Source of the DNA: Candidatus Limnocylindrales bacterium
GTDB lineage: Bacteria > Chloroflexota > Limnocylindria > Limnocylindrales > CSP1-4
Assembly (NCBI GenBank): GCA_036556145.1
Contig: DATBKB010000095.1
Coordinates: forward strand, 809 to 64,808
DNA length: 64,000 bases
Direction of reading: 5' to 3'
In this document: positions 41,501 through 58,026 of the stretch, piece after piece
How the letters are laid out: the number at the start of each line of letters is the position of its first letter
Numbering within the stretch: the first letter of the stretch is position 1
Translations under genes and position numbers: made by a program
The notes under the pieces: model-generated
Told to the model about the DNA's origin: nothing
Database searches by the model: none
What the model saw: only the letters and a program-made list of their open reading frames with translations

Positions 41501-42136
41501 ATGAGCGACGCGCCGGAACCCGCACGCGACCCCACACTCGACCCCGACCTGCTGCCCGCGCTCAAGGCCCTCACCGATCCGATCCGGCTGCGGATCCTCG
41601 GCCGCCTCGCGGCGGGCCCAACCGCGCCCGGCTCGCTCGCGGCGGAGCTCGAGCTGCCGCTGGCTGCGGTCATCAAGGCGGTCGGCCTGTTGCGCGGAGT
41701 CGAACTCGTCCGGGCGGGCCGCGGCCGGGACGCCGCGGTCGAGCTGCGCCTCGACACGCTCCAGGCGCTCGGCCGCCATCTCGACGTCGTCGAGCACGGT
41801 CCGGCGCGGTCCACGGCGGCTGGCGAGGACGGCGAGGTCGCTCGGGAGGACGCGAAGATCCTGCGCGCGTTCCTCGAGGACGGCCGGCTCACGTCCATCC
41901 CGGCGCAGGAGAAGAAGCGGCTGGTCATCCTGCGCTGGCTCCGCGACCAGGTGTTCACCGAGGATCGCGAGTACCCGGAGAAGGAGGTCAACCAGCGCCT
42001 GGCCTTGTTCCACCCGGACGTCGCGGCCCTGCGGCGGTACATGGTCGACAACGGACTCGCGACGCGGGCCGCCGGGGTCTACCGGCGCGCCGAGTCGCGC
42101 CCAGGCTCGGCGAGCGAGAGCTCGGAGCCGAGCTAG
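41501..42136 (+). CDS. ArsR-type HTH / DUF2087 domain transcriptional regulator
   Basis: N-terminal winged HTH (LKALTDPIRLRILGRLAAGP) and C-terminal DUF2087-like region (LRWLRDQVFTEDREYPEKEVNQRLALFHPDVAALRRYMVDNGL); divergent from nfo. Confidence 0.6.
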   Translation: MSDAPEPARDPTLDPDLLPALKALTDPIRLRILGRLAAGPTAPGSLAAELELPLAAVIKAVGLLRGVELVRAGRGRDAAVELRLDTLQALGRHLDVVEHGPARSTAAGEDGEVAREDAKILRAFLEDGRLTSIPAQEKKRLVILRWLRDQVFTEDREYPEKEVNQRLALFHPDVAALRRYMVDNGLATRAAGVYRRAESRPGSASESSEPS

Positions 42137-42717
42137 CGGCGCCCGCCCCGGCCGGGCGTGTACTCGCCGCCGATCACCGGCTCGATGAGCCCGAAGTCAC
42201 CATCGTCACGGCGGTACAGGACGCCGACGCGCTCGGTCTCGGCGTTGACGAACACGAAGAACTCGTGACCGAGCTCCTCCATCCGGGCGATGGCGTCCTC
42301 CTCGAACATTGGCTCGATCGCGAAGCGCTTGACCTTGACGATGCGGCGATCGCGGTCCGGCTCGGCCGTGCCGTCGGCGATGCGGCGGAGCAGGGCCTTC
42401 TCCTCGACCGGACGAGCCCGGACGCGGGGCTTCTCCTTGAAGTCGACCGCCCGCCGCTCGATCTTGTCGACGACCGTGTCGATGCCGGCCTCGTGGCTCA
42501 CGCCGGCCGCGTGGCCGCGGAGCGTCTGGCCGTCGATGACGAGCGTGACCTCCACGATGTGGGAGTCGTCGGCGCTGCGATGCTGCTCGACGGAGAGCTC
42601 GACGATCGCATCGCTGCGGTCGTCGAGGATGCGTTCCATCCGTCGCAGGCGCTTCTCGGCGTATCGTCTGACCCGGTCGGGGACGGCGATGTTCTTGCCC
42701 TTGACGATCGTCCGCAC
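42133..42717 (-). CDS. hpf: Ribosome hibernation-promoting factor, long form
   Basis: S30AE N-domain (IVKGKNIAVPDRVRRYAEKRLRRMER) plus C-terminal dimerisation domain. GGGAGG Shine-Dalgarno 5 nt upstream of GTG at 42717; the 423-aa ORF upstream is unsupported extension. Confidence 0.85.
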   Translation of the reverse strand: MRTIVKGKNIAVPDRVRRYAEKRLRRMERILDDRSDAIVELSVEQHRSADDSHIVEVTLVIDGQTLRGHAAGVSHEAGIDTVVDKIERRAVDFKEKPRVRARPVEEKALLRRIADGTAEPDRDRRIVKVKRFAIEPMFEEDAIARMEELGHEFFVFVNAETERVGVLYRRDDGDFGLIEPVIGGEYTPGRGGRR

Positions 42718-42776
42718 GACCACCTCCCGGCGTCCGAGTATAGGCCGCTCCGGGGTTCGCTCAGCGGCGTCCGGCG

Positions 42777-43460
42777 TCACCGCTCCCGGGCGACAGCGAC
42801 CGCCGACACGGCCATGGCGCCGGCCTCGAGCAGCGGCTCGGCACAGGCGGCGAGCGTTGCACCGGTCGTGATGACGTCGTCGACGAGCACGACCCAGCGG
42901 CCGCGGAGCCAGGCATTCGCGTCCCGGCGTCCCGACCTGAGCCGGAACGCACCGCGGACGTTCGTCGCCCGTGTCCGGCGGTCGAGGTCGAACTGGGCGG
43001 TCGTCGCCCGGGTCCGCTCGAGGGCGAGGTCGGCCGGCAGCCGCAGCTCGCGCGCCGTCGCCGACGCGATGAGCTCCGCCTGGTCGTAGCCACGCGCGCG
43101 CCGCCGGTCCGCGTGGACCGGCACCGGCACGATGACGTCCCCACCGGCGGCGGCACGGGCCCAGCGCCGCGCAACGGCCGCCCCAAGGGGCTCGGCCAGG
43201 CGGCGCTCGCCGCCGTACTTCAGCTGGTGAAGCGCCTTGCGCACGACGCCGCCGAACGGCGCGCACCACTCGAGCTGGAGCAGCGGCACGGGGATCGTCG
43301 CCGGCAGGCCGATCGGCACGCCCGGGGGCAGCGTGAGCCGGGCGTCGAGCGCGGGCGCGCACGACGAGCAGATCGGCTCGCCTTCGCGCCCGCAACCGGG
43401 ACACGCCGGCGGCAACGCCAGGTCGAGGAGGCGGCCCGCGAGCGGTCGGAGGAGCGCCAC
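42777..43460 (-). CDS. comF: ComF family protein (ComFC-like phosphoribosyltransferase with N-terminal zinc ribbon)
   Basis: CPGCG...CSSC zinc finger and PRTase motif VVLVDDVITTGATL; conserved comFC-hpf linkage. Start GTG 43460 (uncertain). Confidence 0.65.
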   Translation of the reverse strand: MALLRPLAGRLLDLALPPACPGCGREGEPICSSCAPALDARLTLPPGVPIGLPATIPVPLLQLEWCAPFGGVVRKALHQLKYGGERRLAEPLGAAVARRWARAAAGGDVIVPVPVHADRRRARGYDQAELIASATARELRLPADLALERTRATTAQFDLDRRTRATNVRGAFRLRSGRRDANAWLRGRWVVLVDDVITTGATLAACAEPLLEAGAMAVSAVAVARER

Positions 43461-43546: not shown

Positions 43547-43933
43547 TCAGTCCGGCGACGAGCCCTCGAGCGCGATGACGTCGCCGACGGCCGTGCCGGT
43601 CGCGTCGATCGTGCCCGCCGGCAGCTCGAGGACGCCGTCGGCCGCGCGGACGAGCGGCACGATCCCGAGCCACGGCCGGAGCGAGCGGTGGACGGAGACG
43701 ACGTGGCGCGCGCCGCGATCGTCGGCCCGACCGACGAAGACCGCATCGATCGGGAAGCGCATGAACATCATGTGGATGCCGTTGCTGGCGGGCAGCCACA
43801 GGCCGGCGCCGTCGCCGAGCGCGGCCCGGCCCATGAGGCCCAGGAACTTCGCCCACAGCCCGGCCGCGGTCTCGAGGCGCGCCGCCAGGACCCGGTGCCG
43901 GGTGACGTTGCGGGCGACGGTCGGATAGGTCAC
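43547..43933 (-). CDS. DUF192 domain protein (COG1430)
   Basis: 128 aa; DUF192 pattern (GLWLPASNGIHMMFMRFPIDAVFV...VHRSLRPWLGIV). Confidence 0.6.
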   Translation of the reverse strand: MTYPTVARNVTRHRVLAARLETAAGLWAKFLGLMGRAALGDGAGLWLPASNGIHMMFMRFPIDAVFVGRADDRGARHVVSVHRSLRPWLGIVPLVRAADGVLELPAGTIDATGTAVGDVIALEGSSPD

Positions 43934-43958
43934 GACGGTCCCCCGGGGAGTGAGCGGC

Positions 43959-44885
43959 TCAGTTCCCCAGGTTCTGCATGATGAGGATCAGGGCCGGCCC
44001 GAGGATGACGATGAAGAGCGACGGGAAGATGCACCCGACGAGCGGGAAGAGCATCTTGATCGGCGCCTTCGCCGCCTGCTCCTCGGCACGCTGCCGGCGC
44101 TCGATTCGCAGCTGCTCCGACTGGACCTGGAGCACCTTCGAGATCGACACGCCGAGCTGCTCGGCCTGGATGATCGCACCGATGAAGTTCGTCAGCGCCG
44201 AGACGTCGGTGCGCGGGACGATGTCGCGGAGCGCGTCGCGGCGCGCCTTGCCGACACGGATCTCGGCCAGCGCCCGGCGGAACTCGTCGGTCAGCGGGCC
44301 CTTGAGCTTCTCGACGACCTTGCCGAGGGCGCCGTCGAAGCCGAGGCCGGCCCGGACGGAGATCGTCAGGAGGTCGAGCGCGTCGGGGATCTGGAGGAGG
44401 ATCGCCTTCTGGCGGGCCCGCACGCGGCCACCCAGCCAGAACTCCGGCAGCGTGTAGCCGAGGAGCAGGCCGACGCCACCCAGGCCGAGGCCCATCGTGA
44501 GGTTGCGGCCGAGCAGGCCGATCAGGACGAAGAAGATGCCGGCGCCGACGAGGGCGCCGATCGCCTTGATGCCCAGCCAGTCGCCGACGCGGAGGTTGCC
44601 CGGGTGGCCGGCGAGGGCGAGGCGCTTCTCGGTCCGCTCCGTGAACGACTGGCTCGTGACGCGGGCGACCGCGCCCGACAGCTGCATCGCCAGCGGGCGC
44701 AGCGTCCGCTCGAGGAACGGCTGCTGGAGCTCGAGCTCCTCGAGGTTCTTCGCCTGCATCGTGCCCAGCTGGGTCAGCCGGGCCTGAACCGGGTCGACCG
44801 ACGACGAGCCGGCGAGCCCGAGGAAGATCAGCAGGATCGCCAGCGCGGCGACCCCGGCAATGACGATCGGCAGGATTGCGGGCAT
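43959..44885 (-). CDS. tadC: Tad pilus platform protein TadC (type II secretion system F family)
   Basis: T2SSF domain (LPDALDLLTISVRAGLGFDGALGKV), 3 TM segments. Confidence 0.8.
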   Translation of the reverse strand: MPAILPIVIAGVAALAILLIFLGLAGSSSVDPVQARLTQLGTMQAKNLEELELQQPFLERTLRPLAMQLSGAVARVTSQSFTERTEKRLALAGHPGNLRVGDWLGIKAIGALVGAGIFFVLIGLLGRNLTMGLGLGGVGLLLGYTLPEFWLGGRVRARQKAILLQIPDALDLLTISVRAGLGFDGALGKVVEKLKGPLTDEFRRALAEIRVGKARRDALRDIVPRTDVSALTNFIGAIIQAEQLGVSISKVLQVQSEQLRIERRQRAEEQAAKAPIKMLFPLVGCIFPSLFIVILGPALILIMQNLGN

Positions 44886-44889
44886 CTGC

Positions 44890-45900
44890 TCAGACCTCGA
44901 TGTCGACGATCTTGCGGATGAGCATGAACCCGATGAACATCATGAACAGGCCGAAGGCCATGATGATGATCCCGGCCGGCAGGCCGAGGATCCCGGGCGG
45001 ATTCGCGAACATCGGGTCGAAGAACTTGGGGGCGGCGACGAAGATGAAGCCGGCGAGGCCGATCGGCAGGAAGCCGACGACGTAGCCCGACAGCCGCTGC
45101 TGCGCCGTCAGCGTGCGAATCTCGCCCTTGATCCGGATCCGCTCGCGGATCGTGTACGCGATGGAGTCGAGGATCTCGGCGAGGTTGCCACCGACGGTGT
45201 GCTGGATCGAGATCGCCGTCGCCATCAGCTCGAGGTCGTCCGACCGCACGCGGCGGACCATGTTCTCGAGCGCCTGCTCGAACGGCAGGCCGAGGTTGAC
45301 CTCACGGATGACGCGGCCGAACTCGGTCGAGACCGGCGGCCGCGACTCGCGGACGACGAGCTCGATCGCCTGGAGGAACGACGAGCCGGCGCGCAGCGCG
45401 TTGGCGATGAGGGTGATCGTGTCAGGCAGCTGCTTGTCGAACGCCCGGAGGCGTCCGCTCTTGCGCCGGGTGAGCCACATCCGCGGCATGATGAAGCCCA
45501 GGAGCGCGGCCACGAGCAGCGCGACCGGGCTGCGCAGCGCGGGCAGGCCCAGGGACAGCGCGACGAACAGCATCGGCGTGCCGACGATCGAGCCGGCCCA
45601 GATGCCGAGGAACTCGCTCACCTTGAGCTTGAGGTCGGCTCGCGCGATCTCCCGGGCGAGGTTCGCACCGAAGTCCCGCTGCTCGACGACCTTGTTGAGC
45701 TGGGTCAGCGCCGCGCTCTGGGCGAGGATGTCGGCCAGGCCGCCCTGACCCGCCGCGGCCGCCTTCTGGTCACGGCCGGCCGCGTAGCGCTCGAGGCGGG
45801 CGCTGATTCCCGAGCTGCCGCCGGACGTCGCGATTCCGACGGCGATCAGGACGATCGCCAGTGCGGCGACCCCCGCGATCGCAATCGTCATTCCGTCCAC
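44890..45900 (-). CDS. tadB: Tad pilus platform protein TadB (type II secretion system F family)
   Basis: T2SSF domain (LPDTITLIANALRAGSSFLQAIELVV), paralogous to tadC and adjacent to it. Confidence 0.8.
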   Translation of the reverse strand: MDGMTIAIAGVAALAIVLIAVGIATSGGSSGISARLERYAAGRDQKAAAAGQGGLADILAQSAALTQLNKVVEQRDFGANLAREIARADLKLKVSEFLGIWAGSIVGTPMLFVALSLGLPALRSPVALLVAALLGFIMPRMWLTRRKSGRLRAFDKQLPDTITLIANALRAGSSFLQAIELVVRESRPPVSTEFGRVIREVNLGLPFEQALENMVRRVRSDDLELMATAISIQHTVGGNLAEILDSIAYTIRERIRIKGEIRTLTAQQRLSGYVVGFLPIGLAGFIFVAAPKFFDPMFANPPGILGLPAGIIIMAFGLFMMFIGFMLIRKIVDIEV

Positions 45901-45920: not shown

Positions 45921-47333
45921 CTAGTAGGCGAAGCCGAAGATGTTCGGGGCGAGGTGGATGCCCATGACCTCGAACTTCTCGACGAACTTCGGCCGGATCC
46001 CGGTCGGCTTGAGGCGACCCTGGATCTTGCCGTCGACGACGCCCGTCTGCTCGAAGACGAAGACGTCCTGCATGACGATGACGTCGCCTTCCATGCCCTG
46101 GACCTCGGTGATGTTCGTGATCTTCCGGGTCCCGTCCTTGAGGCGGCTCTGGTGGACGATGAGGTCCACCGCCGAGGAGATCTGCTCACGGATGGCGCGG
46201 ACCGGCAGGTCGACGCCGGCCATGAGCACCATCGTCTCGAGGCGCGACAGCATGTCGCGCGGCGAGTTGGCGTGACCGGTCGACATCGACCCGTCGTGGC
46301 CGGTGTTCATCGCCTGGAGCATGTCGAGCGCCTCGCCGGCGCGGCACTCTCCGACGATGATCCGGTCGGGCCGCATTCGGAGGGAGTTGCGGACGAGCTC
46401 CCGGATCGGGATCGCGCCCTTGCCTTCGATGTTCGGCGGCCGCGACTCGAGGGTGACGACGTGCTCCTGTCGAAGCTGGAGCTCGGCCGCGTCCTCGATC
46501 GTGACGATCCGCTCATCGTTCGGAATGAACGAGGAGAGGACGTTGAGGGTCGTGGTCTTGCCCGAGCCGGTACCGCCGGAGACGAAGATGTTCAGCCGGG
46601 CCTCGACGCAGGCGCGGAGGAAGTCGAACATGTCCGGCGTCGCCGTCCCGAAGCGGACGAGGTCGTCGACCGTGAACGGGCTGGCCGAGAACTTCCGGAT
46701 CGTGATGACGGGGCCGACGAGCGACAGGGGCGGGATGATCGCGTTGACGCGCGAGCCGTCGGTCAGGCGGGCGTCGACCATCGGGCTCGACTCGTCGACG
46801 CGGCGTCCGATCGGGGCGATGATCCGATCGATGATCCGCATGACGTGGTCGTCGTTCTGGAACACGACGTTCGTCAGCTCGAGGCGGCCGCTGCGCTCGA
46901 TGTAGACCTGACGCGGGCCGTTGACCATGACTTCGGAGATCGACTCGTCGCGGAGGAGCGGCTCGAGCGGGCCGAGGCCGATGATCTCGTCGGTGATCTG
47001 CTCGAGCATTCGGACCCGCTCGGCGCGGGTCAGGGCCAGGCCCTCCTCGTCGATGACCTTGCCGAAGATCTCCTCGATCTGGCGGCGAACCTCGACCTGG
47101 TTGGACAGGTCGAGCTTGGGGTCGAGGTCCTGGATGACGCGGTTCTGGATCCGGAACTTGACGTCCCGGAACGACTCGCGGACAGGGCCCTGGGCCATCA
47201 GCCGGGCCGCGGACGTCGCGGGCGGGCCGCCGCTCGGGGGCGTCGGCGCGGCCGGCGAGCCGGCGCCGGACCCAGCGGGCGTGGCCGGGCCACTGCCCGG
47301 TCGGGCGGACTCGATTCGCTTCAGGAGGGACAT
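45921..47333 (-). CDS. cpaF: Tad pilus secretion ATPase CpaF/TadA
   Basis: VirB11/CpaF-type hexameric ATPase; Walker A VSGGTGSGKTT, Asp box, His box (TGHDGSMSTGHANSP). Confidence 0.9.
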   Translation of the reverse strand: MSLLKRIESARPGSGPATPAGSGAGSPAAPTPPSGGPPATSAARLMAQGPVRESFRDVKFRIQNRVIQDLDPKLDLSNQVEVRRQIEEIFGKVIDEEGLALTRAERVRMLEQITDEIIGLGPLEPLLRDESISEVMVNGPRQVYIERSGRLELTNVVFQNDDHVMRIIDRIIAPIGRRVDESSPMVDARLTDGSRVNAIIPPLSLVGPVITIRKFSASPFTVDDLVRFGTATPDMFDFLRACVEARLNIFVSGGTGSGKTTTLNVLSSFIPNDERIVTIEDAAELQLRQEHVVTLESRPPNIEGKGAIPIRELVRNSLRMRPDRIIVGECRAGEALDMLQAMNTGHDGSMSTGHANSPRDMLSRLETMVLMAGVDLPVRAIREQISSAVDLIVHQSRLKDGTRKITNITEVQGMEGDVIVMQDVFVFEQTGVVDGKIQGRLKPTGIRPKFVEKFEVMGIHLAPNIFGFAY

Positions 47334-47380: not shown

Positions 47381-48622
47381 TCACCGCCATGCGAAGAGAG
47401 ACTTCCGGGCAGCCGGCTTCTGCGGCTCGGCCGCGGGCACCGGCTCGCGCTCGCCGACCACGGCGGCGGCGAGCCGAAGGATGTCGTGCGAGACCTGCGC
47501 CTCGCGGTTGCTCAGGAAGAAGGGCACGCCGCGGTTGAGCGCGTAGACGACGCTCCGGCCGTCGCTGACGATCGTGTGATCGACCTTGCGGCCGATCGAG
47601 TTCTCGACGTCGGTGACCTTGATCCCGAGCGTTGAGTCGGCCCGATTGAGGACGAGGCGAACCTTGCCCGTCTCGTAGCCGAGCTGCTCCGCGACCTCCA
47701 GGAAGAGGCGCATGTTCTTGATGCTCGTGATCTCGAGGCTGAGCATCGTCAGGATGATGTCGGCGCTGTCGAGGATGCCGAGGGTCGTGTCGTTGAACCA
47801 CGACGTGCAGTCGACGACGACGAGGTCGTGCTTCGCCCGGAGCGCCTCGAGGACCTTCTTGACGCCGGACGGGTTGATGAGCTCGGCCATCTCGGGGGAC
47901 GGTGGGGCGAGCAGGACGCCGATGCCGGCGGAGTGGTTGATGACGAAGGTATCGAGCGAGTCGGCCTCGCCCGCCTCGAGCTCCGGCACGAGGTCGGCGA
48001 TCGACTTGTTGCGGGGGTTGAGGTTGAGGAGCACGCCGACGTCGCCGAACTGGAACGAGCCGTCGACGAGGACGACGTCCTTGCCGAGCTCGGTCGCCGC
48101 GGCCACCGCGAGGTTCACGGCGACCGTCGTGCGGCCGACGCCGCCCTTCGGGCTGAAGACCGCGACGAGGATCCCGGGATCGCGGGACGGGCCGTCGGTC
48201 CCGCTCGCGACCGGCACGGCCGCGGCCATCCGCGACAGCTTCTCCCGCTCGCGGATGTAGACCTGCCGGATCGAGGCGGTCAGCTCGTCGCTGCTGAACG
48301 GCTTGACGAGGAACTCGCGCGCGCCGGCGAGCATCGAGCGCCGAAGGTAGTCGGCCTCGCCCTGGACGGACATCATGACGACCGATGCCGTCGGCGCCCG
48401 CGCGGCGAGCTGTTCGGTCGTGCTGATGCCGTCCATGTCCGGCATGTTGATGTCCATCAGCACGACGTCCGGCTGGAGCTTCACGGCGAGCTCGATCGCC
48501 TCGCCACCCGACGACGCGGACCCGACCACCTCGATGTCGGCCTCGAAGCCGAGGAGCTTGGTCAGGTGATCCCGCGTCTCCGGGATGTCGTCGACGATCA
48601 GGACCTTGATCTGGTCGGCCAT
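47381..48622 (-). CDS. cpaE: CpaE/TadZ-like pilus assembly protein (N-terminal receiver domain + ParA/MinD-like ATPase domain)
   Basis: REC-like N-terminus (KVLIVDDIPETRDHL...VVLMDINMPDMDG) fused to deviant Walker A ATPase (VFSPKGGVGRTTVAVNLA). Confidence 0.85.
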   Translation of the reverse strand: MADQIKVLIVDDIPETRDHLTKLLGFEADIEVVGSASSGGEAIELAVKLQPDVVLMDINMPDMDGISTTEQLAARAPTASVVMMSVQGEADYLRRSMLAGAREFLVKPFSSDELTASIRQVYIREREKLSRMAAAVPVASGTDGPSRDPGILVAVFSPKGGVGRTTVAVNLAVAAATELGKDVVLVDGSFQFGDVGVLLNLNPRNKSIADLVPELEAGEADSLDTFVINHSAGIGVLLAPPSPEMAELINPSGVKKVLEALRAKHDLVVVDCTSWFNDTTLGILDSADIILTMLSLEITSIKNMRLFLEVAEQLGYETGKVRLVLNRADSTLGIKVTDVENSIGRKVDHTIVSDGRSVVYALNRGVPFFLSNREAQVSHDILRLAAAVVGEREPVPAAEPQKPAARKSLFAWR

Positions 48623-48750: not shown

Positions 48751-49632
48751 CTACTGCCGCTCCGGCAGGATTGCTTCGACGAGCTGCGGGATGAGGACGT
48801 CGTACTCGTCGACGAGGACCCGCAGGGTCACGCCGGTCGTGCCGGCCGCCTCGCCGGGGATGACGTTGCCCTGCTCGTCGCGGAAGTCGTTCGGCGAGCG
48901 CAGGACGAGCGACACCGTGCCGTCCATCTGGGCGAACTTGATGACCTCGGCCTGCTGCGGCGTCACCGAGAGGATGACGATCTCCTGCTGGCCGGTGAGG
49001 GTCACGCCCTGCTCACCCTGGGTCTGGCCCTCGGTCGTCTCCCGCGGCGGGAGCAGGGTGCCGATGACCTGCATGCCCTGGAGCAGCAACTTGACGCTGG
49101 TGGCGTTGATGCCCGAGACGACGTTGATCGTGTCGTCCGACGGGTTGAGCGTGACGACCGGGAACTTGTCGGTGCCGAAGCCGACGAGCAGGTCGACGTA
49201 GTCACCCTGTCGGATGACGGTGCCGACGCCCGAGACCTGGTCGACCTGGATCGCGATCGCGCGCTGTCCGGGCGGCACCGTGACGTTGATGAGGCCGGTC
49301 GAAGCTCCGGTATCGAAGTCGCGGGCCGTCAGCTGCTTGCCGGCCGCGATGTCCTGACGGGCGATCTTGCCGAGCAGGAGGCTGGCGTCCGGGAAGGCCT
49401 GCGCGTCACGCTGGGTGACCGCGAGGTTCTTGCTGGTGAGCATGTCCGCGGTGATCGGCGTGCCGAGCGCGATGGCTCGGGCGGCGAACACCGTCGGGAG
49501 CTGCGATGGCGTCTGCGTGCCGCCGCCGCCACCGCGGTCGCCCTGGAAGACGACCACGATTCCGACGAAGGCGACGATCGCGAGGAAGACGCCGATGAGC
49601 AGGACGAGCCGATTCGAGCGCTTCAAGTGCAT
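48751..49632 (-). CDS. cpaB: Flp pilus assembly protein CpaB/RcpC (SAF domain)
   Basis: N-terminal TM anchor then SAF/CpaB region (PTVFAARAIALGTPITADML..., ATSVKLLLQGMQVIG). Confidence 0.8.
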   Translation of the reverse strand: MHLKRSNRLVLLIGVFLAIVAFVGIVVVFQGDRGGGGGTQTPSQLPTVFAARAIALGTPITADMLTSKNLAVTQRDAQAFPDASLLLGKIARQDIAAGKQLTARDFDTGASTGLINVTVPPGQRAIAIQVDQVSGVGTVIRQGDYVDLLVGFGTDKFPVVTLNPSDDTINVVSGINATSVKLLLQGMQVIGTLLPPRETTEGQTQGEQGVTLTGQQEIVILSVTPQQAEVIKFAQMDGTVSLVLRSPNDFRDEQGNVIPGEAAGTTGVTLRVLVDEYDVLIPQLVEAILPERQ

Positions 49633-49988: not shown

Positions 49989-50039
49989 CCCGCCTTCTCG
50001 CAGGTACGCACCCTGCGCGTGGTAGATCGCGGACCGGGC

Positions 50040-50285: not shown

Positions 50286-50322
50286 AACGAAAAAGCGGCC
50301 CGCCGTTCGTCCGGCGGGCCGC
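50286..50322 (-). terminator. Intrinsic terminator downstream of flp1 (minus strand)
   Basis: Perfect 11-bp GC stem (gcggcccgccg / cggcgggccgc), 6-nt loop; on the minus strand followed by UUUUUCGUU; 20 bp after the flp1 stop. Confidence 0.6.
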
Positions 50323-50343
50323 TTTGATTGGCGGTTCAGGGGG

Positions 50344-50538
50344 TCAGGGCGTGACGCTGTCGATCGAGCTGCCGATGACGCTGAGCTTGTCGCTCACCTG
50401 GCTGCCCAGGAACATGAGCGCGGAGATTGCGACGATCGCGATCAGGGCGAGAATGAGTGCGTATTCGGCCAGGCCCTGGCCATCCTCGTCGCGGCGGATG
50501 AGCGAATAGAGCCGGACGAGTGCGGAGCGGATGCCCAC
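50344..50538 (-). CDS. flp: Flp family type IVb pilin 1
   Basis: Flp motif G-x4-EY (RRDEDGQGLAEYALILALIAIVAI), hydrophobic helix and Ser/Thr-rich tail; AAGGAGGTG RBS 5 nt before GTG at 50538 (ORF track start 50622 is an unsupported extension). Confidence 0.75.
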   Translation of the reverse strand: MGIRSALVRLYSLIRRDEDGQGLAEYALILALIAIVAISALMFLGSQVSDKLSVIGSSIDSVTP

Positions 50539-50769
50539 CAGTTCACCTCCTTTCATCGGAGTCGTTGGCGGACCCGGTTGCCACAGGGCTACTGCCGGTC
50601 CGGCGCCGCTCGTACAGGCCACACTAGGTTTGCCGGTACGGGTGTCAATGACCCGAATGGGGGGAGTGGTGACGAGGCGCCACGAGCGTCCGCCACGCTC
50701 CCCGGAAGAGTCGAACCGCCGGCCCGACAGGCGGGCCGGCGGTCCGGATGGTCGCGAGTCAGGAGGCGA

Positions 50770-50940
50770 CTAGATCGAGTCGCCGACCGTGCTGAGGATC
50801 GTGCTGACCTGCGAGCCGAGGAAGATCAGCGCGACGATCGCGACGATCGCGATGAGGGCGAGGATCAGCGCGTACTCGGCGAGACCCTGGCCTTCCTCGT
50901 CGCGACGGAACGACGCGATAAGTGCATGAAGGAACGACAT
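50770..50940 (-). CDS. flp: Flp family type IVb pilin 2
   Basis: MSFLHALIASFRRDEEGQGLAEYALILALIAIVAIVALIFLGSQVSTILSTVGDSI; AGGAGG RBS 9 nt upstream of ATG 50940. Confidence 0.75.
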   Translation of the reverse strand: MSFLHALIASFRRDEEGQGLAEYALILALIAIVAIVALIFLGSQVSTILSTVGDSI

Positions 50941-51196
50941 GTGCTTCGACACCTCCTTTCCTTCAGAAAGTCCCTCGGTATACGCCGAAGGCGAGGCCAA
51001 CGTACGAACGCCGGCATGGGTGCCGCAATGGGACTTCAGGGATAGGACCTGGTGCGTCGGCGCCCTCGTCACGCACGGGCCCGGGGCAGCCCGTCAACGG
51101 GAGTCGTGGAGGGGAGAGCGGCCGCCCGGTGGGCGGCGGGCAAAACGAAACCGCCGGGCCCGAAGGCCCGGCGGTTAGACCGTTCTGGCGTGACGA

Positions 51197-51367
51197 CTAG
51201 ATCGAGTCGCCGACGGTGCTGAGGATCGTGCTGACCTGGGCGCCCAGGAAGATCAGGGCGACGATCGCAACGATCGCGATGAGGGCGAGGATCAGCGCGT
51301 ACTCGGCGAGACCCTGGCCATCCTCGTCGCGGCGAAGCGCGGCGAAGAGCGAGTGAATGAGCGCCAT
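51197..51367 (-). CDS. flp: Flp family type IVb pilin 3 (near-identical paralogue of pilin 2)
   Basis: MALIHSLFAALRRDEDGQGLAEYALILALIAIVAIVALIFLGAQVSTILSTVGDSI; AGGAGG RBS 9 nt upstream of ATG 51367. Confidence 0.75.
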   Translation of the reverse strand: MALIHSLFAALRRDEDGQGLAEYALILALIAIVAIVALIFLGAQVSTILSTVGDSI

Positions 51368-51519: not shown

Positions 51520-51702
51520 CTAGCGGCCCTCGGACGCCTCCACGGCCCGGGCGATGAAGTCGAGCACGTCGGCGACCGTGCCGCCGGCGAACGTCAGCAG
51601 GCCCAGGGCGAAGAGCGCCGCGCCGCCGAGGATCAGGCCGTACTCGACGATGCCCTGGCCGGCGATGCGCCGAGGCACCGGTCGACCGGGGCGTCGAGTC
51701 AC
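51520..51702 (-). CDS. Divergent Flp-like prepilin 4
   Basis: VTRRPGRPVPRRIAGQGIVEYGLILGGAALFALGLLTFAGGTVADVLDF...; G-x4-EY motif present; GTG start overlaps the stop of the upstream degenerate kinase (GTGA). No obvious RBS. Confidence 0.5.
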   Translation of the reverse strand: MTRRPGRPVPRRIAGQGIVEYGLILGGAALFALGLLTFAGGTVADVLDFIARAVEASEGR

Positions 51703-52847
51703 CGCGACGCCGTCGTCGGCTCGGCGGACGTGGCGTCCGCGATCACGAGCAGCGTGCCGCCGTCGTCGATGAGCTGGACGGTCGCCCCGATTGGCGCCGC
51801 TCGCTGCTGGATCTCCCGCCAGGCGGCGTCGGGGAGCGTCAGCTGCCACGCCTGGCGAGCCGCCTCGGCCGCCTTGAGCTGGTCCGCGCGGCGATCCTCC
51901 ATCATCGCCGCGAGCGCCGGCGGGACGTCCTTGCCGGCCTTCTTGTCGCGCTCGGCCTCGACCGGCACGCTCGGCCGCTCACCGCTTCGCTTCGCGCTGA
52001 CCCGGGCCTCGAGCTGGTCTGACCAGTCGAGGCGGATCGCCAGCGAATCGGGGGCCTGGGAGAGGTAGGCGGCGAGCGCCTCGTCGACGATGCGGAAGAG
52101 CGCGCTCTCGATCTCGACCGGCAGCCGCCGGTCGGCCCCGAGCGAGTCGAACGACACCGCGACGCCCGCCCGGCGGCCGCGGTCGCGGGCGGCGCGGCGG
52201 AGCGTGGGCACGAGCCCGAGGTCGTCGAGGACCATCGGCCGGACGTCGAAGATGAAGGACTTCGTCGCCTCGAGCGTCTGCTGGACCATGCCGATGAGGA
52301 GCCCGACCTCGGTCCGCGCCCGGGCGGTGTCGGTGGCGAGGAGCCGTTCCACGATCTGGGCCTGGAGGACGATGTTCGTCAGGCTCTGCGCGGGACCGTC
52401 GTGCATCGCGCGCGCAATCTCGCGGCGAAGATCCTCCTGGGCGGCGAGGACGGCCCGCGACGCCGCCGGCGGCAGCGACCCGTCGGCGGCGGACAGCGTC
52501 CGGGCCGGTGCATCGGCAGCCGCGAGCTTGCCGAGCGACTCGCGGAAGCGCGCGAGTGTCTTCCGCTTGCCCTCGAGGACGTCGACCTGGGCCTCCATGA
52601 GCGCCGCCCGACGCGTCAGCGTGACGAGCTGGTCGCTGAGCTCGAGGCGCTCCTTGAAGTCGGCGTTGCGGTCGACGAGGATCGTCATCTTGTCCGCAGC
52701 CTGCTTGCGCTTCTGCTCGTGGCGAGCGGACTCGGCCTTCGCCTGGTTGATGAGCAGCTCGATCTCACGGAGCTCCTTGTCGAGCACGGCAAGCTCCGCG
52801 GCGAGGGGCTGATCGGCGGGCGCGGAGGCGGTCACGGAATCGGTCAC
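51699..52847 (-). CDS. DegS-like cytoplasmic histidine kinase paralogue with degenerate ATP-binding domain (putative pseudokinase)
   Basis: Coiled-coil N-terminus and HisKA_3 H-box (LRREIARAMHDGPAQSLTNIVLQAQIVERL). C-terminal region lacks clear N/G1/G2 boxes (no KHA, no DxGxG/GxGL) and carries a low-complexity insertion. Confidence 0.65.
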   Translation of the reverse strand: MTDSVTASAPADQPLAAELAVLDKELREIELLINQAKAESARHEQKRKQAADKMTILVDRNADFKERLELSDQLVTLTRRAALMEAQVDVLEGKRKTLARFRESLGKLAAADAPARTLSAADGSLPPAASRAVLAAQEDLRREIARAMHDGPAQSLTNIVLQAQIVERLLATDTARARTEVGLLIGMVQQTLEATKSFIFDVRPMVLDDLGLVPTLRRAARDRGRRAGVAVSFDSLGADRRLPVEIESALFRIVDEALAAYLSQAPDSLAIRLDWSDQLEARVSAKRSGERPSVPVEAERDKKAGKDVPPALAAMMEDRRADQLKAAEAARQAWQLTLPDAAWREIQQRAAPIGATVQLIDDGGTLLVIADATSAEPTTASR

Positions 52848-52914: not shown

Positions 52915-53661
52915 TCAGTCCTCGGGCATCCGGATCCATCCCTGGCGCATCGCGTACACGACGGCCTGGGTGCGGTCGTTCACCGACAGCTTGCGCAGGA
53001 TCGAGCTCATGTGGTTCTTGACGGTCTGCTCGCTGATCGACAGGGAGTAGGCAACCTGCTTGTTCGTCATGCCCTGGGCGATGTTGTCGAGGATCTCGAC
53101 CTCGCGCGGCGAGAGCGGCGCGAAGATCGGGGCCGCTTCCTGGCCGTAGACGGCCAGCTCGCGGAACTCCTTGAGCACGCGGCTCGCGACCGACGGCTTC
53201 GCGAAGACCTTGTCGTTGATCAGGTACTCGCCCGTGACGACGCGGCGAATGATCGTGACGAGGTCGTCGGGTCCGACGTCCTTGAGGATGAACGCGGCCG
53301 CGCCGGCCTTGATCGCATCGAACAGCGCGTCCTCGTCCTCACTGACGGCGAGCACGATGATCCCCGTCGACGGCAGCTCGCGCTTGATCCGCTGGGTCGT
53401 CTCGATGCCGCCGGGGGCGGGCAGCGAGAGGTCCATGAGGATGATGTCCGGCGACGTCTCGAGCGACCGGTCGACCGCGGAGCGGCTGTCGTCGGCCTCG
53501 CCGACGACGTCGAAGTCCGACTCGCGCTCGATGATGTTCTTGATCCCGACCCGGAACAGGGCGTGGTCGTCGACGATGAGGATCCGGGTCTTCTCGCCCG
53601 GACCACGCCGGTCGGGGCCGCCCCGACGGCGCTCCGGGCCGCTGTAGTCGATTGCCGTCAT
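52915..53661 (-). CDS. NarL/FixJ (DegU-like) response regulator
   Basis: REC domain (ILIVDDHALFRVGI...IILMDLSLPAPGGIETT) and LuxR-type HTH (LSPREVEILDNIAQGMTNKQVAYSLSISEQTVKNHMSSILRKL). Confidence 0.85.
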   Translation of the reverse strand: MTAIDYSGPERRRGGPDRRGPGEKTRILIVDDHALFRVGIKNIIERESDFDVVGEADDSRSAVDRSLETSPDIILMDLSLPAPGGIETTQRIKRELPSTGIIVLAVSEDEDALFDAIKAGAAAFILKDVGPDDLVTIIRRVVTGEYLINDKVFAKPSVASRVLKEFRELAVYGQEAAPIFAPLSPREVEILDNIAQGMTNKQVAYSLSISEQTVKNHMSSILRKLSVNDRTQAVVYAMRQGWIRMPED

Positions 53662-54734
53662 GTCGTCTCCTTTGCTCCCATCGGGATCGCGAGCCGGACG
53701 ACCGTGCCCTCACCGGGTCGCGATCGTACGTCGAGACGGGCCCCGATCAGCTCGGCCCGCTCCTGCATGAACCGGACTCCGAAGTGGCGGCGACCCTGGG
53801 TGGTCGCCGTGGCGAGGTCGAATCCCCGCCCGTCATCGCGAATTTCGAGGACCCAGTCCTCACCTTCGACCCGGGTCGTGACGGACACCTTGGAGGCCGA
53901 GGCGTGCTTGCGGACATTCTGGAGCGCCTCCTGCGCGACGCGCAGGGCGACGGTCTGGGCGGCGTCCGGGAGCCGCCCGTCGGGAGCCGTGAGATCGCTC
54001 TCGACGGTGACATGGATGAGCGATCCGGCCTGACGGATCGTCTCCTCGAGCGCGCCGTTGAGGCCGACGGCGTCGAGGAGCGGTGGCCGGAGCTGGCCGA
54101 TGAAGCCCCGAACCTCGCCGAGCTCGCGGCGCAGGAGGTCGCGCAGCGAGAGCAGCTCGATCCGGGCCTGGCGCGGATCCTTGCCGACGATCCGCTCGAT
54201 GTATTCGACCTGGAAGATCGCGTTCGACAGCACCTGCGCCGGCCCGTCGTGGACCTCCTGGGCGAGCCGCGAGCGCTCGGCCTCCTGGGCCTGGACGATC
54301 CGCAGGTTCACGTCCGCGGTGCCGCCGCCACCCGATGGGTTGATGAGGCTCGTGTCGCCGCGCTCGAGGAAGAGCCACAGCGATTCGAGATTGCGGACGG
54401 CGAGCTCGAGGCGGTTGAGCTCGGCCTGTTGACGGCCCAGCTCGCCACGGCGGCGATGGAGCTCCTGGCGCGGATCGATCTTGCCCGCGGCCGGGGGCCG
54501 AATCGCTTCCCGGGCGGCGTCTCGCGCCTCGACGCGGCGTCGCAACGCGAGCCAGGCCGCCTGCTCCTCGCCGTAGGCGGTGCGGTACTCCTCGCGGAGC
54601 GCGCGCAGCTTGTTCGCGGTGGACGCGAGGGCGGCCTTCGCCTCGGCATGGAGCCCCTCGATGCGCCCGACCGGCGACTCGGCCCCGGCGCGTGCTGCGT
54701 CCATCTGGCGGCGAGTATACGGAACGTCTTTCAT
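53658..54734 (-). CDS. DegS-like cytoplasmic sensor histidine kinase (HisKA_3 + HATPase_c)
   Basis: Coiled-coil N-terminus, H-box (RLAQEVHDGPAQVLSN), N-box (QEALQNVRKHASA), G1 (IRDDGRGFD), G2 region. Start ATG 54734 overlaps the stop of the upstream GT (ATGA); stop overlaps the RR start (ATGA). Confidence 0.85.
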   Translation of the reverse strand: MKDVPYTRRQMDAARAGAESPVGRIEGLHAEAKAALASTANKLRALREEYRTAYGEEQAAWLALRRRVEARDAAREAIRPPAAGKIDPRQELHRRRGELGRQQAELNRLELAVRNLESLWLFLERGDTSLINPSGGGGTADVNLRIVQAQEAERSRLAQEVHDGPAQVLSNAIFQVEYIERIVGKDPRQARIELLSLRDLLRRELGEVRGFIGQLRPPLLDAVGLNGALEETIRQAGSLIHVTVESDLTAPDGRLPDAAQTVALRVAQEALQNVRKHASASKVSVTTRVEGEDWVLEIRDDGRGFDLATATTQGRRHFGVRFMQERAELIGARLDVRSRPGEGTVVRLAIPMGAKETT

Positions 54735-56401
54735 CGGCAGACCACCCGGAAGACGCGCGTGCCCTCGAGCGCCGCCGCGAGTCGGGGATCGTCGGGGGTG
54801 CCGAGCGGGACCTCGTCGAAGCACTCGGTGCCCGGTCCGCCGGCGTCGAGGATCGCGGGCCACACCTCGTGCTGGCCGCCGTGGATCACGAGCGTGCGCG
54901 TCCCGGGGAACGCGGCCGCGAGCGCGAGCACCGACGCCGGTCGCTCGTCCGGGAGCGCGAGCCCGCGGGCGCCGGTCGTCTCGGCCAGCCAGATCGGGTA
55001 GTCGGTAATGACGGGGCCGATGTCCCGCAGCGGCAGGCCGGCCGCGGCCATCTCGGCCTCGAGCGCCACGTACCGGTTGGCGGTCTCGCGCGAGCCGGCG
55101 CCGAACGACGGCAGCAGCGCGATCGAGAAGAGCGCCGCGCCGGCCACCGTCAGCGTCGCCCCGAGCCAGGCCACCGGCCGCGTCCAGCCCCGCAGCCGGC
55201 CGACCCGGGCAATCAGCGCGTCGAGGCCGAAGAGCGCCGAGACGATGAGCAGCACGTGGACCGGTCCCGCGGCGTGGAGAAACGTGCCCCACGTCGTCGC
55301 GACCGGGAACAACAGGCTCGTCACCGTGAACGTCAGGGCCGAGACGAGGACGACCGGCCGCAGCGCAACCGAGCGGACGAGCCACGGCAGCGCGACGAGC
55401 CCGACGATCGACACGGGGGCGCCCGGCGCGAGCAGGACGTTGACGAGGTTGTGGGCGAGGCCGTCGACGCGCATCTCGATGAGGCGCGCCGGCCCGACCG
55501 CGAGGTACCGGGCGAGCGTCGGCGGGTCGGCCCAGGCGAAGACGTCCGAGCCGCGGACGGAGAGCGCGTTCGACAGCGCCTGTCCCGGCAGCGGGTTGCC
55601 GAAGACGATCCAGTCGCGGATCGCCCACGGGGCGAAGAGGGCCAACGCGATGACGCCCGGCACCGCCACCATCGCGACCTTGCGGCGCCGGTCCGGCCCG
55701 CGTCGCGACCACATGATGAGCACCCAGGCGAGCGCAAGCCAGGCCGCTTCGTTCCGCGTCCACGCCGCGAGGCCGAGCAGCGCGCCGAGGCCGACGAGCC
55801 GGGCGTCGAGGAGCCGCAACTCCTCGGCGGCCCGGGCGGCTCGCGTCATGAGAAGGCACGCGCCGAGGGCGAGCACCGTGAACGGCATCGTCGAATCGGG
55901 CAGGGCGCTGTGGAGCAGGAGCGGCAGCGACACGGCGGCCGTCAGACCGGCACCGAGCGCGAGCGTTCGCGCGCGACCCGGCGGCAGGCCGCGCTCCGCG
56001 GCAAGGTCGGCCGCGAGTCGCCAGGCCAGCGGCGGGACGGCCGCGCCGACGAGCACCGAGCTCAGCTGCGCCGCGGCAAACGTCGAGCCGAGCACCGCCA
56101 TCGGCATCGCCGCGAGCAGCGTCGGGAGCGGCAGCCAGACCTCGAATGCGGCGCGCGGGATCTCGAGCGGCGGCGTGCCGTAGCTCCAGAGCGCGTCGCT
56201 CACCATGCCACGGCCCTCGAGGATGTTCGCGGCGACCGCGACGTAGTAGGCGGTGTCCTCGGGCTTCGGGAACACGACGAGCGACGCGGCGACGACTCGA
56301 ACCGCGAGACCGAGGGCGACGACGGCCGCGAGGGCCGCGATCGCGGGCAGCGTGAGGACCGCCCGCACCGAGACGGGAGCGAGGGTCGCCGGCCGGGTCA
56401 C
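54731..56401 (-). CDS. GT-C fold membrane glycosyltransferase, PMT_2/ArnT-like (GT39/GT83 family), copy 2
   Basis: ~556 aa polytopic; first-loop acidic motif (FPKPEDTAYYVAVAANILEGRGMVSDALW) typical of Pmt/ArnT-like GT-C enzymes. GTG start at 56401 overlaps the stop of copy 3; the six-frame ORF to 57547 is a frame overlap. Confidence 0.7.
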   Translation of the reverse strand: MTRPATLAPVSVRAVLTLPAIAALAAVVALGLAVRVVAASLVVFPKPEDTAYYVAVAANILEGRGMVSDALWSYGTPPLEIPRAAFEVWLPLPTLLAAMPMAVLGSTFAAAQLSSVLVGAAVPPLAWRLAADLAAERGLPPGRARTLALGAGLTAAVSLPLLLHSALPDSTMPFTVLALGACLLMTRAARAAEELRLLDARLVGLGALLGLAAWTRNEAAWLALAWVLIMWSRRGPDRRRKVAMVAVPGVIALALFAPWAIRDWIVFGNPLPGQALSNALSVRGSDVFAWADPPTLARYLAVGPARLIEMRVDGLAHNLVNVLLAPGAPVSIVGLVALPWLVRSVALRPVVLVSALTFTVTSLLFPVATTWGTFLHAAGPVHVLLIVSALFGLDALIARVGRLRGWTRPVAWLGATLTVAGAALFSIALLPSFGAGSRETANRYVALEAEMAAAGLPLRDIGPVITDYPIWLAETTGARGLALPDERPASVLALAAAFPGTRTLVIHGGQHEVWPAILDAGGPGTECFDEVPLGTPDDPRLAAALEGTRVFRVVCR

Positions 56402-58026
56402 GAGCCGCACCGATCGTCGGTCGCGGTGACGCACACCGGATAGAGCGCGATCTCCGGCCCTGGCCGGGGCGGCGCGTAGGCCCGGAAGATCGGCCGGCCG
56501 ATCCAGCTCGGACGCGACTGGCCGAGGAGCACCGGCGCGAGCGGCGCGACGATGTCGTCGCGCTCGAGGACGAGCCAGCGCGTGCCGTAGGCGCGCGCGA
56601 CGGACTCGATCGTGTCGAGTGGGTCGTTGGGGGTCACGACGCCGCCGCGGCCCGTGGCGTAGCGCATGCCCGCGGCATCGATCGACAGGATTCGATCGTT
56701 CATGCCCGCGCCCGCGGCATCGAGGGCGACCGCGACGGCGGAGCGCGCCTCGCGCTTGCGATCCCAGCCGGCGTGGACCGAGACCGCCGACGCGACCGCG
56801 GCGAACAGCGCGAATACGACCGCGGCGGTCGTGAAGATGCGCGTCGCACCGGCCGGATTCCAGGACCGGCGGCGGGCGGCCGTCCAGGCGACGCCGACGG
56901 CGATCCCCTCGACGGCCAGGATGTACGAGTGGGGGACCAGCGCGACCGCGCTGTGGATGAACGTGCCGCCGGGCACGTGGACCGCCGAGACGAGCGCCGA
57001 GAATGCGAACAGCAGCCCGGCGTAGGCGAAGAACGGCCCGAAGTCGCGCGACCGCCGCCGCGCCCAGCCGCCGATCGCCATGAGCGGCACGAGGAGGCCC
57101 GCGCCGACGAGCGTCGTGTAGATGAGCGCCGCCGCGATGAGGCCGCCGATACGGCTCGCGACGAGCGGCCCGGCGCCCTGGCCGAGGAAGGAGTCGAGGT
57201 TGGCCGGCGTGGTGATGCTGTTCCACTCGTCGATCGAGCGGATGTAGAGGACCCTGCCCGTCGCCGCCGACGGGGACAGCGAGCCGAAGACCTCGAGCTG
57301 GCGCAGCCACCACGGCCCGACGGCGAGGAGGAACAGCACGAGTGCCGCGACCGCGGCCCAGGCCGGGATCGCCGGCGCACGGCCGCCGCCCGCACGCCAC
57401 GCCCGCCACCGGTCGTACAGCACCGCGAGACCGAACGTTGCCGCGAGCAGGACCCCGTCGTTGCGCGACATCGTCGCAAGGCCGACGAGCAGGCCACCGA
57501 GGACGAACGACCGGGGATGGCCCTTGAGCCCGCGCGCGGCCATCCACAGCGCCCCGACGGCGAGCGGCTGGAACAGCGAGAAGTTGTCCGGCTGGGGCAT
57601 GAAGACCAGCGACAGCGCCGGGATCGCGGTGAGGATCCCTGCCGCGAACGCGACGGCCGGGCTCGCCCCAGCTTCGCGTGCGATGGCCCAGCAGAGCGGC
57701 GCCGCGATGGCGCCGATGAGCGCGAACGGCAGCGCCGACGCGAACGCCGTCGGTCCCAGGACCGCGATGAACGGAACCTGGACGAACGACGCGAGCGGCA
57801 TCCAGTGGGCGTTGCTCGGAATCGGCAGCGTCGGATCCGACGGGATCCCGCCACCGACCTCGGCGAAGATCCAGATGAAGTCGACGCTCAGCCCGTGGCC
57901 CGTCGCGAGCGCCCGCGCGACGTCGGTGTAGTAGTAGCTGTCGGGGTAGGCAGGGTCGGGGAACAGCGCGACCAGGACCAGTCGCGCCGCGAGCGCCAGT
58001 ACGTAAAGGAGGGTGGGGATGCCCAC
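56398..58026 (-). CDS. GT-C fold membrane glycosyltransferase, PMT_2/ArnT-like (GT39/GT83 family), copy 3
   Basis: ~542 aa polytopic; VGIPTLLYVLALAARLVLVALFPDPAYPDSYYYTDVARALATGHGLSVDFIW; GTG start 58026 proposed (ORF track extends to 58995 through low-complexity Arg/Glu/Asp sequence that is probably not translated). Confidence 0.65.
   Translation of the reverse strand: MGIPTLLYVLALAARLVLVALFPDPAYPDSYYYTDVARALATGHGLSVDFIWIFAEVGGGIPSDPTLPIPSNAHWMPLASFVQVPFIAVLGPTAFASALPFALIGAIAAPLCWAIAREAGASPAVAFAAGILTAIPALSLVFMPQPDNFSLFQPLAVGALWMAARGLKGHPRSFVLGGLLVGLATMSRNDGVLLAATFGLAVLYDRWRAWRAGGGRAPAIPAWAAVAALVLFLLAVGPWWLRQLEVFGSLSPSAATGRVLYIRSIDEWNSITTPANLDSFLGQGAGPLVASRIGGLIAAALIYTTLVGAGLLVPLMAIGGWARRRSRDFGPFFAYAGLLFAFSALVSAVHVPGGTFIHSAVALVPHSYILAVEGIAVGVAWTAARRRSWNPAGATRIFTTAAVVFALFAAVASAVSVHAGWDRKREARSAVAVALDAAGAGMNDRILSIDAAGMRYATGRGGVVTPNDPLDTIESVARAYGTRWLVLERDDIVAPLAPVLLGQSRPSWIGRPIFRAYAPPRPGPEIALYPVCVTATDDRCGS

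Follow-up and report, generated by a model that had tools for sequence, protein, structure and literature searches.

What is the role of two membrane glycosyltransferases encoded at the head of a pilus gene cluster? This question is raised by a 64,000-nt stretch of DNA (below, the window) from a metagenome-assembled genome (MAG) of Candidatus Limnocylindrales (Chloroflexota; GCA_036556145.1, contig DATBKB010000095.1, positions 809-64,808 of the forward strand). On its minus strand, two paralogous genes for glycosyltransferases (GT) of the GT-C class, named GT3 (56398-58026) and GT2 (54731-56401), are followed by genes for a histidine kinase (HK, 53658-54734), a response regulator (RR, 52915-53661), a pseudokinase (51699-52847), Flp pilins and the Tad pilus machinery. 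A preliminary description of the window proposed that they form a regulated module for the glycosylation of the Flp pilin or of a Tad-associated glycoconjugate. We found that the GT-C pair is tied both physically and evolutionarily to the two-component system and to the flp/tad genes, but that the evidence for the pilin as the acceptor is positional. The locus is a real, conserved glycosylation and pilus locus and is probably co-regulated, with sugar modification and pili switched together. The explanation that we prefer, with a probability of roughly 40%, is a lineage-wide surface locus of Limnocylindria whose single two-component system governs both a module for extracytoplasmic glycosylation and a Flp/Tad pilus, and in which the acceptor belongs to the envelope or is a general one.

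A conserved gene order in Limnocylindria

In the window, which is about 72% G+C, the genes were delimited by third-position GC frame, open reading frame (ORF) analysis and Pfam, which reproduced the named minus-strand genes of the preliminary description and their coordinates. The four 4-nt overlaps between neighbours are exact: GTGA for GT3/GT2, ATGA for GT2/HK, ATGA for HK/RR and GTGA for the pseudokinase and the first pilin gene, flp4. GT3 is the first gene of this operon-like block. A database search returned a Limnocylindrales MAG protein 100% identical to GT3 of the window; the closest database matches were recorded at 63-76% identity.

Scans of genomes and metagenomes gave 160 related loci, some of them possibly duplicated between the two collections. 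Both scans were saturated by Limnocylindria, and distant contexts of the GT3 family were reached one by one. Neighbours were counted in loci with enough flanking DNA and a GT3 of at least 50% identity. GT2 was present in 108 of 109 testable loci, HK in 87 of 88, cpaE/F in 62 of 63, and RR (88), the pseudokinase (67) and at least one flp gene (67) in every testable locus. The order GT3-GT2-HK-RR-pseudokinase-flp (two to six copies)-cpaB/E/F-tadB/C is shared by virtually all of the approximately 130 related loci, with GT3 identities of 50-100%. The synteny of glycosyltransferase, kinase, regulator and flp genes, which the preliminary description had suggested looking for in relatives, is therefore conserved across the whole class, and the arrangement is far beyond chance. 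Spacing is conserved as well. The median upper-bound gap in relatives was 5 nt from GT2 to HK and -4 nt from HK to RR, and the former did not exceed 30 nt in 75 of 99 relatives. Order and spacing persist while HK, the pseudokinase and CpaB drop to about 50% identity.

Several loci have lost part of the block. In L115 (8356-16320), an intact GT3 is followed by a remnant of RR and then by DUF192, comF, hpf and nfo, and everything from GT2 through tadC is gone. In L094 (5148-11725), GT3-GT2-HK-RR is kept, but the pseudokinase gene runs from its 5' part directly into the 3' part of tadB, so that flp and cpaB/E/F are gone. GT2 and HK are lost from L141, where only fragments of them remain. L118 and L171 have no HK and no cpaB, and a motif search at the locus found no flp gene, while GT3-GT2-RR-pseudokinase is kept; an opposite-strand sulfotransferase gene (8603-9505 in L171, ~8472-9761 in L118) occupies the place where flp and cpaB normally sit. 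RR is kept in all deletion variants, in L115 as the remnant.

Among six distant GT3-family contexts, three (L163, L167 and L169/L170) had no Tad gene within 10 kb. L166 has tadB-tadC and TadE/TadG genes at 4-9 kb from GT87-GT3-GT2; L168 has a GT3-like gene with tadZ-tadB-tadC-tadE-tadE-tadG-tadA beginning 1.3 kb downstream of it; and in L165, a CpaF-like gene is found 8.4 kb from the GT3-family gene. A motif search revealed no Flp-type gene in L163 and L165-L168. On the short contigs L083 and L162, the neighbours of the GT3-family gene are unrelated.

The GT-C pair and the glycan genes upstream of it

GT3 matched only the broad PMT_2 model (PF13231; E 2e-8, 34.8 bits) and did not match the PMT domain PF02366. 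The earlier term "GT39-like" expresses a resemblance of domain only, GT39 being a label that comes from the PMT_2 model, and no orthologue-level match to a characterised Pmt was found. GT2 had no Pfam or NCBIfam match and was recognized by its similarity to GT3 (28% identity over 491 aa, E 4e-21). A further PMT_2 gene (38889-40457), previously counted as "copy 1", had no detectable similarity to GT3. Twelve hydrophobic segments were predicted in GT2 and about 11-12 in GT3, the latter number being read from overlapping segments. An AF2 model of GT3 (pTM 0.74) was compared with known structures by Foldseek, and STT3, AglB, PglB, ArnT, DPY19 and AftA were all matched at a probability of 1.0 with TM scores of 0.44-0.55 and no favourite. 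In this model, GT3 has the GT-C fold with a multi-span membrane N-terminal module.

ArnT resembles GT3 by fold alone (TM 0.55 at 15% identity), and no orthologue-level sequence match of GT3 to the ArnT/GT83 lipid A aminoarabinose transferase was found. A GT3 profile matched none of the PDB sequences, solved GT-C enzymes included, and NCBIfam contained no equivalog for GT3, GT2 or the GT87 genes described below. The preliminary description had named orthology to a characterised lipid A, arabinogalactan or lipomannan enzyme as the result that would overturn it; the NCBIfam, fold and PDB-profile comparisons gave no such orthology. Because the sequences match neither a curated family nor a solved structure, GT3 and GT2 are classified here, by sequence, as a distinct GT-C subfamily orthologous to no characterised enzyme. 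Asp29 of GT3, located in the 'AYPDSYYY' loop (the first extracytoplasmic one), is invariant even among family members only 25-53% identical. In 126 GT2 orthologues, E48 was kept in 107 and D49 in 116.

Upstream of GT3 and divergent from it, on the plus strand, three GT-C genes of the GT87 (DUF2029) family were detected with Pfam at 58174-59046, 59043-60290 and 60287-61303, all absent from the earlier list of genes. Their GT87 matches are weak (32-49 bits). The sole NCBIfam match among GT3, GT2 and the GT87 genes, that of the first GT87 gene to the mannosyltransferase PRK13375, scored 40.8 bits against a cut-off of 413. Copy number and orientation of the GT87 genes differ among relatives. Beside them, at 61555-62976, a conserved cytoplasmic protein of 473 aa is encoded, which is 61-81% identical in relatives and has only a faint resemblance to methyltransferases (E 0.009).

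On the opposite strand upstream of GT3, 90 related loci have a gene that encodes about 280 aa and whose product belongs to the GT2 family of glycosyltransferases (written "GT2-family" here and distinct from the GT2 gene of the pair). Among solved structures, the product is closest to Dol-P-Man synthase (E 6.5e-13) and ArnC. This synthase-like gene is directly adjacent to GT3 in about 30 loci (108-270 nt); elsewhere it lies up to about 8.9 kb away, and the intervening DNA usually contains GT87 genes. Genes for GT4, PIG-L and a FemAB-type acetyltransferase are located on the synthase side in some relatives. As judged from homology, the GT-C pair with a divergent synthase homologue in relatives corresponds to the layout of a three-component extracytoplasmic glycosylation system. 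In the genome studied here, the synthase gene probably lies just past the right end of the window.

Regulatory genes, transcription units and pilins

HK is a soluble kinase with a coiled-coil N-terminus and HisKA_3 and HATPase_c domains. The pseudokinase has a DHp domain with its His (HisKA_3 match only) and no ATPase domain; it is 35% identical to HK over DHp, with the His box kept and the Asn of the N-box lost. Neither protein contains a hydrophobic segment or a recognised sensor domain (Pfam, hydrophobicity). The pseudokinase is as conserved as the true kinase, being present at all 67 testable loci and kept in L118 and L171, where the kinase gene is missing. RR, a NarL/GerE-type regulator (REC and GerE domains), is 80-97% identical in relatives. 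The name "DegS-like" given earlier to this system holds for the architecture, a soluble HisKA_3 kinase with a REC-GerE regulator, but orthology could not be established: the DegS N-terminal domain (PF05384) was not among the Pfam matches of HK at E <= 0.01, and the best NCBIfam matches of the kinase and regulator were of MctS and NarL types, far below the cut-offs.

CpaE also carries a receiver domain (Pfam E 9e-29), which could be a second target of the adjacent kinase. The Asp-Asp, Asp, Ser/Thr and Lys residues typical of receivers are in place both in this domain and in RR, so a phosphorelay that branches towards transcription and pilus assembly is plausible. In L059 and L094, GT2 and HK share one continuous reading frame. 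This may be a real fusion or a frameshift or assembly error; if real, it argues for physical contact between GT2 and the kinase.

The region from the glycosyltransferases to hpf was previously described as one co-directional, translationally coupled string. It is co-directional, and coupling holds for GT3-GT2-HK-RR and for pseudokinase-flp4, but the other gaps measure 67 nt (RR to pseudokinase), 155 nt (flp4 to flp3), 256 nt (flp3 to flp2), 231 nt (flp2 to flp1), 711 nt (flp1 to cpaB) and 128 nt (cpaB to cpaE). Conserved flp promoters, a strong terminator after each major flp gene and the 711-nt spacer speak against co-transcription of the whole. Transcription probably proceeds in separate units: GT3-GT2-HK-RR, perhaps extended by pseudokinase-flp4; each of the three remaining flp genes by itself; and cpaB through tadC, possibly with the DUF192 gene.

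All four pilin genes lie on the minus strand: flp4 (51520-51702; divergent, motif G/QGIVEY), flp3 (51197-51367; major type with a 39-aa mature form, motif G/xxxxEY), flp2 (50770-50940; major type) and flp1 (50344-50538; longer-tailed). Terminator hairpins follow flp3 (51149-51176; -31.2 kcal/mol, z -5.5), flp2 (~50712-50746; -34.2 kcal/mol, z -6.4) and flp1 (~50291-50325; -31.7 kcal/mol, z -5.4). A simple sigma-70 scan of the region gave no promoter, and the flp promoters became visible only by cross-species comparison. Of 200 distinct regions upstream of major flp genes in relatives, 75 had the pattern TTGAC-N17-20-TAnnnT, compared with 0.4 in shuffles. The pattern lies about 85 nt before the start codon, and a GCACC element stands 23-25 nt upstream of its -35 hexamer. 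The promoter of flp2 is at 50999-51028 and that of flp1 (TTGACA-N16-TAGTGT) at 50621-50648.

GT3 has no Shine-Dalgarno sequence. Its upstream region (58030-58083, minus strand) contains the near-invariant element CCGGTGC-TAnnnT-GCACCGG, which ends 3 nt before the GTG start in the window and 1-3 nt before the start codon in relatives; at this fixed position, GGTGC was present in 83 and GCACC in 90 of 118 loci. A second block, CTAGCCGATTCGTACTGGTCCGA (58061-58083), is situated about 40-60 nt upstream of GT3, with CGTAC at -50 in 94 of 118 loci, and looks like a candidate regulator site. An RNA hairpin was considered for the palindrome and rejected. The outer arm bases vary without compensatory changes and every loop fits TAnnnT with an upstream TG, so the element looks like an extended -10 promoter, possibly of a leaderless mRNA.

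A shared operator picked out by eye, ATAG-N3-A-N-TCGT, was discarded, as it occurred in 11 of 118 GT3 regions and 2 of 200 flp regions. Three places have only the GCACC pentamer in common: the GT3 element, the element upstream of the flp genes, and window-specific palindromes located between flp1 and cpaB. The spacer between these two genes contains tandem repeats (49833-50256; 31 nt x4.8 and 61 nt x3.3), and the palindrome ACGCACC-N3-GGTGCGT was found four times in the 61-nt units, compared with 0.27 expected. Such a long spacer is present only in the window and in its closest relative, L004; in most relatives it measures about 230 nt. Rfam returned nothing in 38000-64000.

In all, 285 Flp genes with the G/xxxxEY motif were collected across 88 sequences, the window included. 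The four genes of the window each encode a short prepilin with this processing motif followed by a hydrophobic helix, and are thereby assigned to the Flp/Fap (type IVc) pilins; the Flp genes of relatives have weak Pfam Flp_Fap matches. Conservation in the 39-aa major pilin reaches about 90% at Ser29 and Ser33 and about 79% at Ser38, with variable surface positions around them. The pilins have no N-x-S/T sequon for N-glycosylation.

The Tad components of the window, all on the minus strand and assigned with Pfam, are CpaB/RcpC (48751-49632; RcpC/SAF), TadZ/CpaE (47381-48622; REC and AAA_31/ParA), TadA/CpaF (45921-47333; T2SSE), TadB (44890-45900; T2SSF) and TadC (43959-44885; T2SSF). No prepilin peptidase TadV/CpaA, pseudopilin TadE/F or secretin RcpA/CpaC was found among the Pfam-scanned genes of the window. 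TadV/CpaA and TadE/F must be encoded elsewhere in the genome, and the absence of a secretin from the window would fit a single-membrane envelope. Downstream of tadC are a DUF192 gene (43547-43933), a comF-like phosphoribosyltransferase gene (42777-43460) and hpf (42133-42723), on the same strand. Between hpf and an AP-endonuclease gene, 692 nt (41441-42132) gave no convincing gene call, and the long ORF at 40466-42013 extends well upstream of its region matching AP_endonuc_2.

The acceptor, the alternatives and known systems

Which molecule receives the sugar? In the mechanism that we propose, the GT2-family enzyme would load a sugar onto polyprenyl phosphate and, after flipping, GT3 and GT2 would pass it to an acceptor outside the membrane. 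The two probably act as a hetero-complex, because their paralogous genes are translationally coupled, and the GT87 enzymes may lengthen the glycan product. GT3-GT2-HK-RR would be one operon with its own conserved promoter, so that the amount of transferase would follow the activity of the soluble kinase and the NarL-type regulator. The regulator would also drive the individually promoted flp genes, and the CpaE receiver domain may be a further target of the kinase or pseudokinase. Most likely, the sugar ends up on an envelope glycoconjugate or on secreted proteins generally, and not on the pilin exclusively. This is supported by the intact GT3 that outlasts deletion of flp/tad genes, with or without GT2, HK and RR (L115, L094, L141), by the GT pair kept in L171 and L118, where no flp gene was found at the locus, and by the three distant contexts lacking Tad genes nearby. 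The term "dedicated", applied earlier to the GT-C enzymes, does not agree with this persistence of GT3, with or without GT2, in L115 and L094, nor with the variable set of GT87 and GT2-family glycan genes that the pair adjoins.

Several points weigh against this explanation. The synthase gene is outside the window; its counterpart in the closest relative is 8.75 kb upstream of GT3. A flippase was not identified, and a 118-aa gene that overlaps the synthase gene in L002 had no Pfam match. Because of the phylogenetic relationship among all loci, they cannot be counted as independent events. The deletions in the variants may have happened recently, and further tad loci may exist in those genomes. 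Tad genes recur beside distant GT3-family genes in different arrangements (L166, L168, possibly L165), which favours a Tad-specific acceptor. Finally, an operator common to the GT3 and flp promoters was not demonstrable, as only the GCACC pentamer is shared, and the case for co-regulation therefore comes from gene arrangement.

The alternative that survives best, to which we give a somewhat lower weight and which remains tentative, is that GT3 and GT2 attach O-linked sugar to exposed C-terminal Ser/Thr of Flp or of the TadE/F/G pseudopilins, either ahead of assembly or in its course, while the two-component system matches the supply of pilin and transferase. In all testable loci whose GT3 reaches the 50% identity limit, the GT pair, the regulator and flp are neighbours, the GT3 family lies near Tad genes in the rearranged distant lineages L166, L168 and L165, Ser29, Ser33 and Ser38 are conserved in the major pilin, and the pilin and GT3 are both unusually conserved. 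The precedent of a GT-C pilin glycosyltransferase exists: TfpW of P. aeruginosa group IV is a D-arabinofuranosyltransferase that uses a polyprenyl-phosphate sugar and glycosylates the type IVa pilin on Ser/Thr (bioRxiv 10.1101/2020.04.19.049825). For Flp1 of Aggregatibacter, a modification has been inferred (cited in PMC12307814). Against this stand the intact GT3 of L115 and L094, the GT pair of L171 and L118, and the half of the distant contexts free of Tad genes. The adjoining multi-enzyme GT87/GT2-family set is more typical of polymer synthesis, and the pilin offers no N-glycosylation sequon. The Ser/Thr-rich tails were put forward in the preliminary description as plausible O-glycosylation sites; such tails (the Flp tail peptide here is QVSTILSTVGDSI) are generic to Flp pilins, and the Caulobacter Tad pilin is similarly Ser/Thr-rich. 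No glycan density is seen in the Caulobacter Tad pilus (PMC10710030), which weakens the argument from the tails.

A stronger form of the same idea is equally doubtful. GT3 and GT2 would then be the first dedicated Flp/Tad (type IVc) glycosyltransferases, a heteromeric pair that O-glycosylates the conserved Ser residues of the 39-aa Flp (or the pseudopilins) with a polyprenyl-phosphate-linked sugar; kinase, pseudokinase and regulator would also gate assembly through the CpaE receiver domain, and the link of GT3 with Tad would reach beyond Limnocylindria.

It is improbable, although compatible with the other explanations, that the GT genes are the input device of the two-component system, with the soluble kinase reading the state of the membrane GT-C enzymes (e.g. 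donor/acceptor flux) by direct contact. The lack of a hydrophobic segment or recognised sensor domain in both kinase and pseudokinase, the overlap of the GT2 stop with the HK start, the short GT2-HK gap in most relatives and the single reading frame of GT2 and HK in two contigs would agree with it. However, both apparent fusions may be assembly or frameshift errors, and the kinase is dispensable in the lineages that keep GT3-GT2-RR-pseudokinase (L118, L171).

The left part of the window (1-37983) is an origin-proximal housekeeping region with gyrA, gyrB, parB, parA, mreD, PBP2, rodA, L21/L27, prfA, prmC, a sua5 homologue, glyA, a WecA/TagO-like GT4-family gene, the atp operon, murA and mreB, in an order that resembles the prfA...atp...murA...mbl region of Bacillus. 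That GT, regulator and tad genes share no more than an ancestral adjacency is likewise improbable: all strongly syntenic loci belong to one class and may reflect a single ancestral event beside these conserved genes, but the overlaps and near-zero gaps from GT3 to RR were held during protein divergence to about 50% identity, the core order is constant while the GT87 genes beside it differ freely in copy number and orientation, and Tad and GT3-family genes are associated in rearranged form in L166 and L168.

A class-wide locus of GT-C pair, regulator and pilin is a concrete candidate for Flp/Tad pilin modification. If the pilin is not the acceptor, pili for adhesion or DNA uptake would be switched jointly with envelope glycosylation in an abundant uncultured lineage of soil and freshwater Chloroflexota, by an unusual pair of soluble kinase and pseudokinase. 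Elsewhere, glycosylated pilins give protection against pilus-specific phages (bioRxiv 10.1101/150227), and the identity of the acceptor therefore bears on the phage-host ecology of these communities. Our literature search found no paper that ties glycosyltransferases to Tad pili in Chloroflexi or mentions pili in Limnocylindria, and no enzyme described for modification of a Flp/Tad pilin.

How does the locus compare with known systems? Like the three-component systems (GtrA/GtrB/GtrV, CsbB-YfhO, ArnC-ArnT, Ppm1-Pmt), it has, in relatives, a homologue of GT2-family polyprenyl-phosphate-sugar synthases beside a GT-C enzyme with an acidic residue in loop 1. It differs in having two paralogous, coupled GT-C genes that would share an operon with a soluble kinase and regulator directly upstream of pilin genes, in the lack of an identified flippase, and in the lack of sequence-level orthology to characterised members. 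The combination of a PMT_2-like GT-C enzyme, GT87 enzymes and a Dol-P-Man-synthase-like GT2-family enzyme recalls actinobacterial O-mannosylation and lipomannan synthesis (Pmt of GT39, PimE/MptA-C of GT87, Ppm1), but here GT3 matches only PMT_2, GT2 matches nothing and the GT87 matches are weak.

With TfpW the locus shares the GT-C enzyme class. The tfpW gene lies immediately after the pilin gene in a strain-variable island. In contrast, when gene position and pilin type are compared, the GT genes here are core, class-wide and upstream of flp with three regulatory genes between, and the pilin is of the Flp/type IVc kind. The soluble HisKA_3 kinase with a NarL/GerE-type regulator, and comF and hpf downstream, resemble DegS-DegU of Bacillus subtilis; in Bacillus, degSU, comF, flagellar genes and hpf form one gene region. 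The position of comF upstream of flgM has been described (bioRxiv 10.1101/2025.07.11.664319). The locus kinase differs by the lack of a detected DegS N-terminal domain and by its MctS/NarL-type best NCBIfam matches.

A two-component system belonging to a Tad locus, one part of the combination that the preliminary description took for new, was already known. In Pectobacterium, such a system flanking flp/tad activates these genes (PMC3767616), and in P. aeruginosa PprAB does so from an adjacent position (PMC6821963). In the locus studied here, a regulator is likewise encoded beside flp/tad genes, but the kinase is of the soluble HisKA_3 type and is accompanied by a conserved pseudokinase, its gene would be co-transcribed with glycosyltransferases, and CpaE carries a canonical receiver domain. 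Each kind of component is thus known from other systems; what is new is the class-wide combination of the GT-C pair, the regulator and the Flp/Tad genes.

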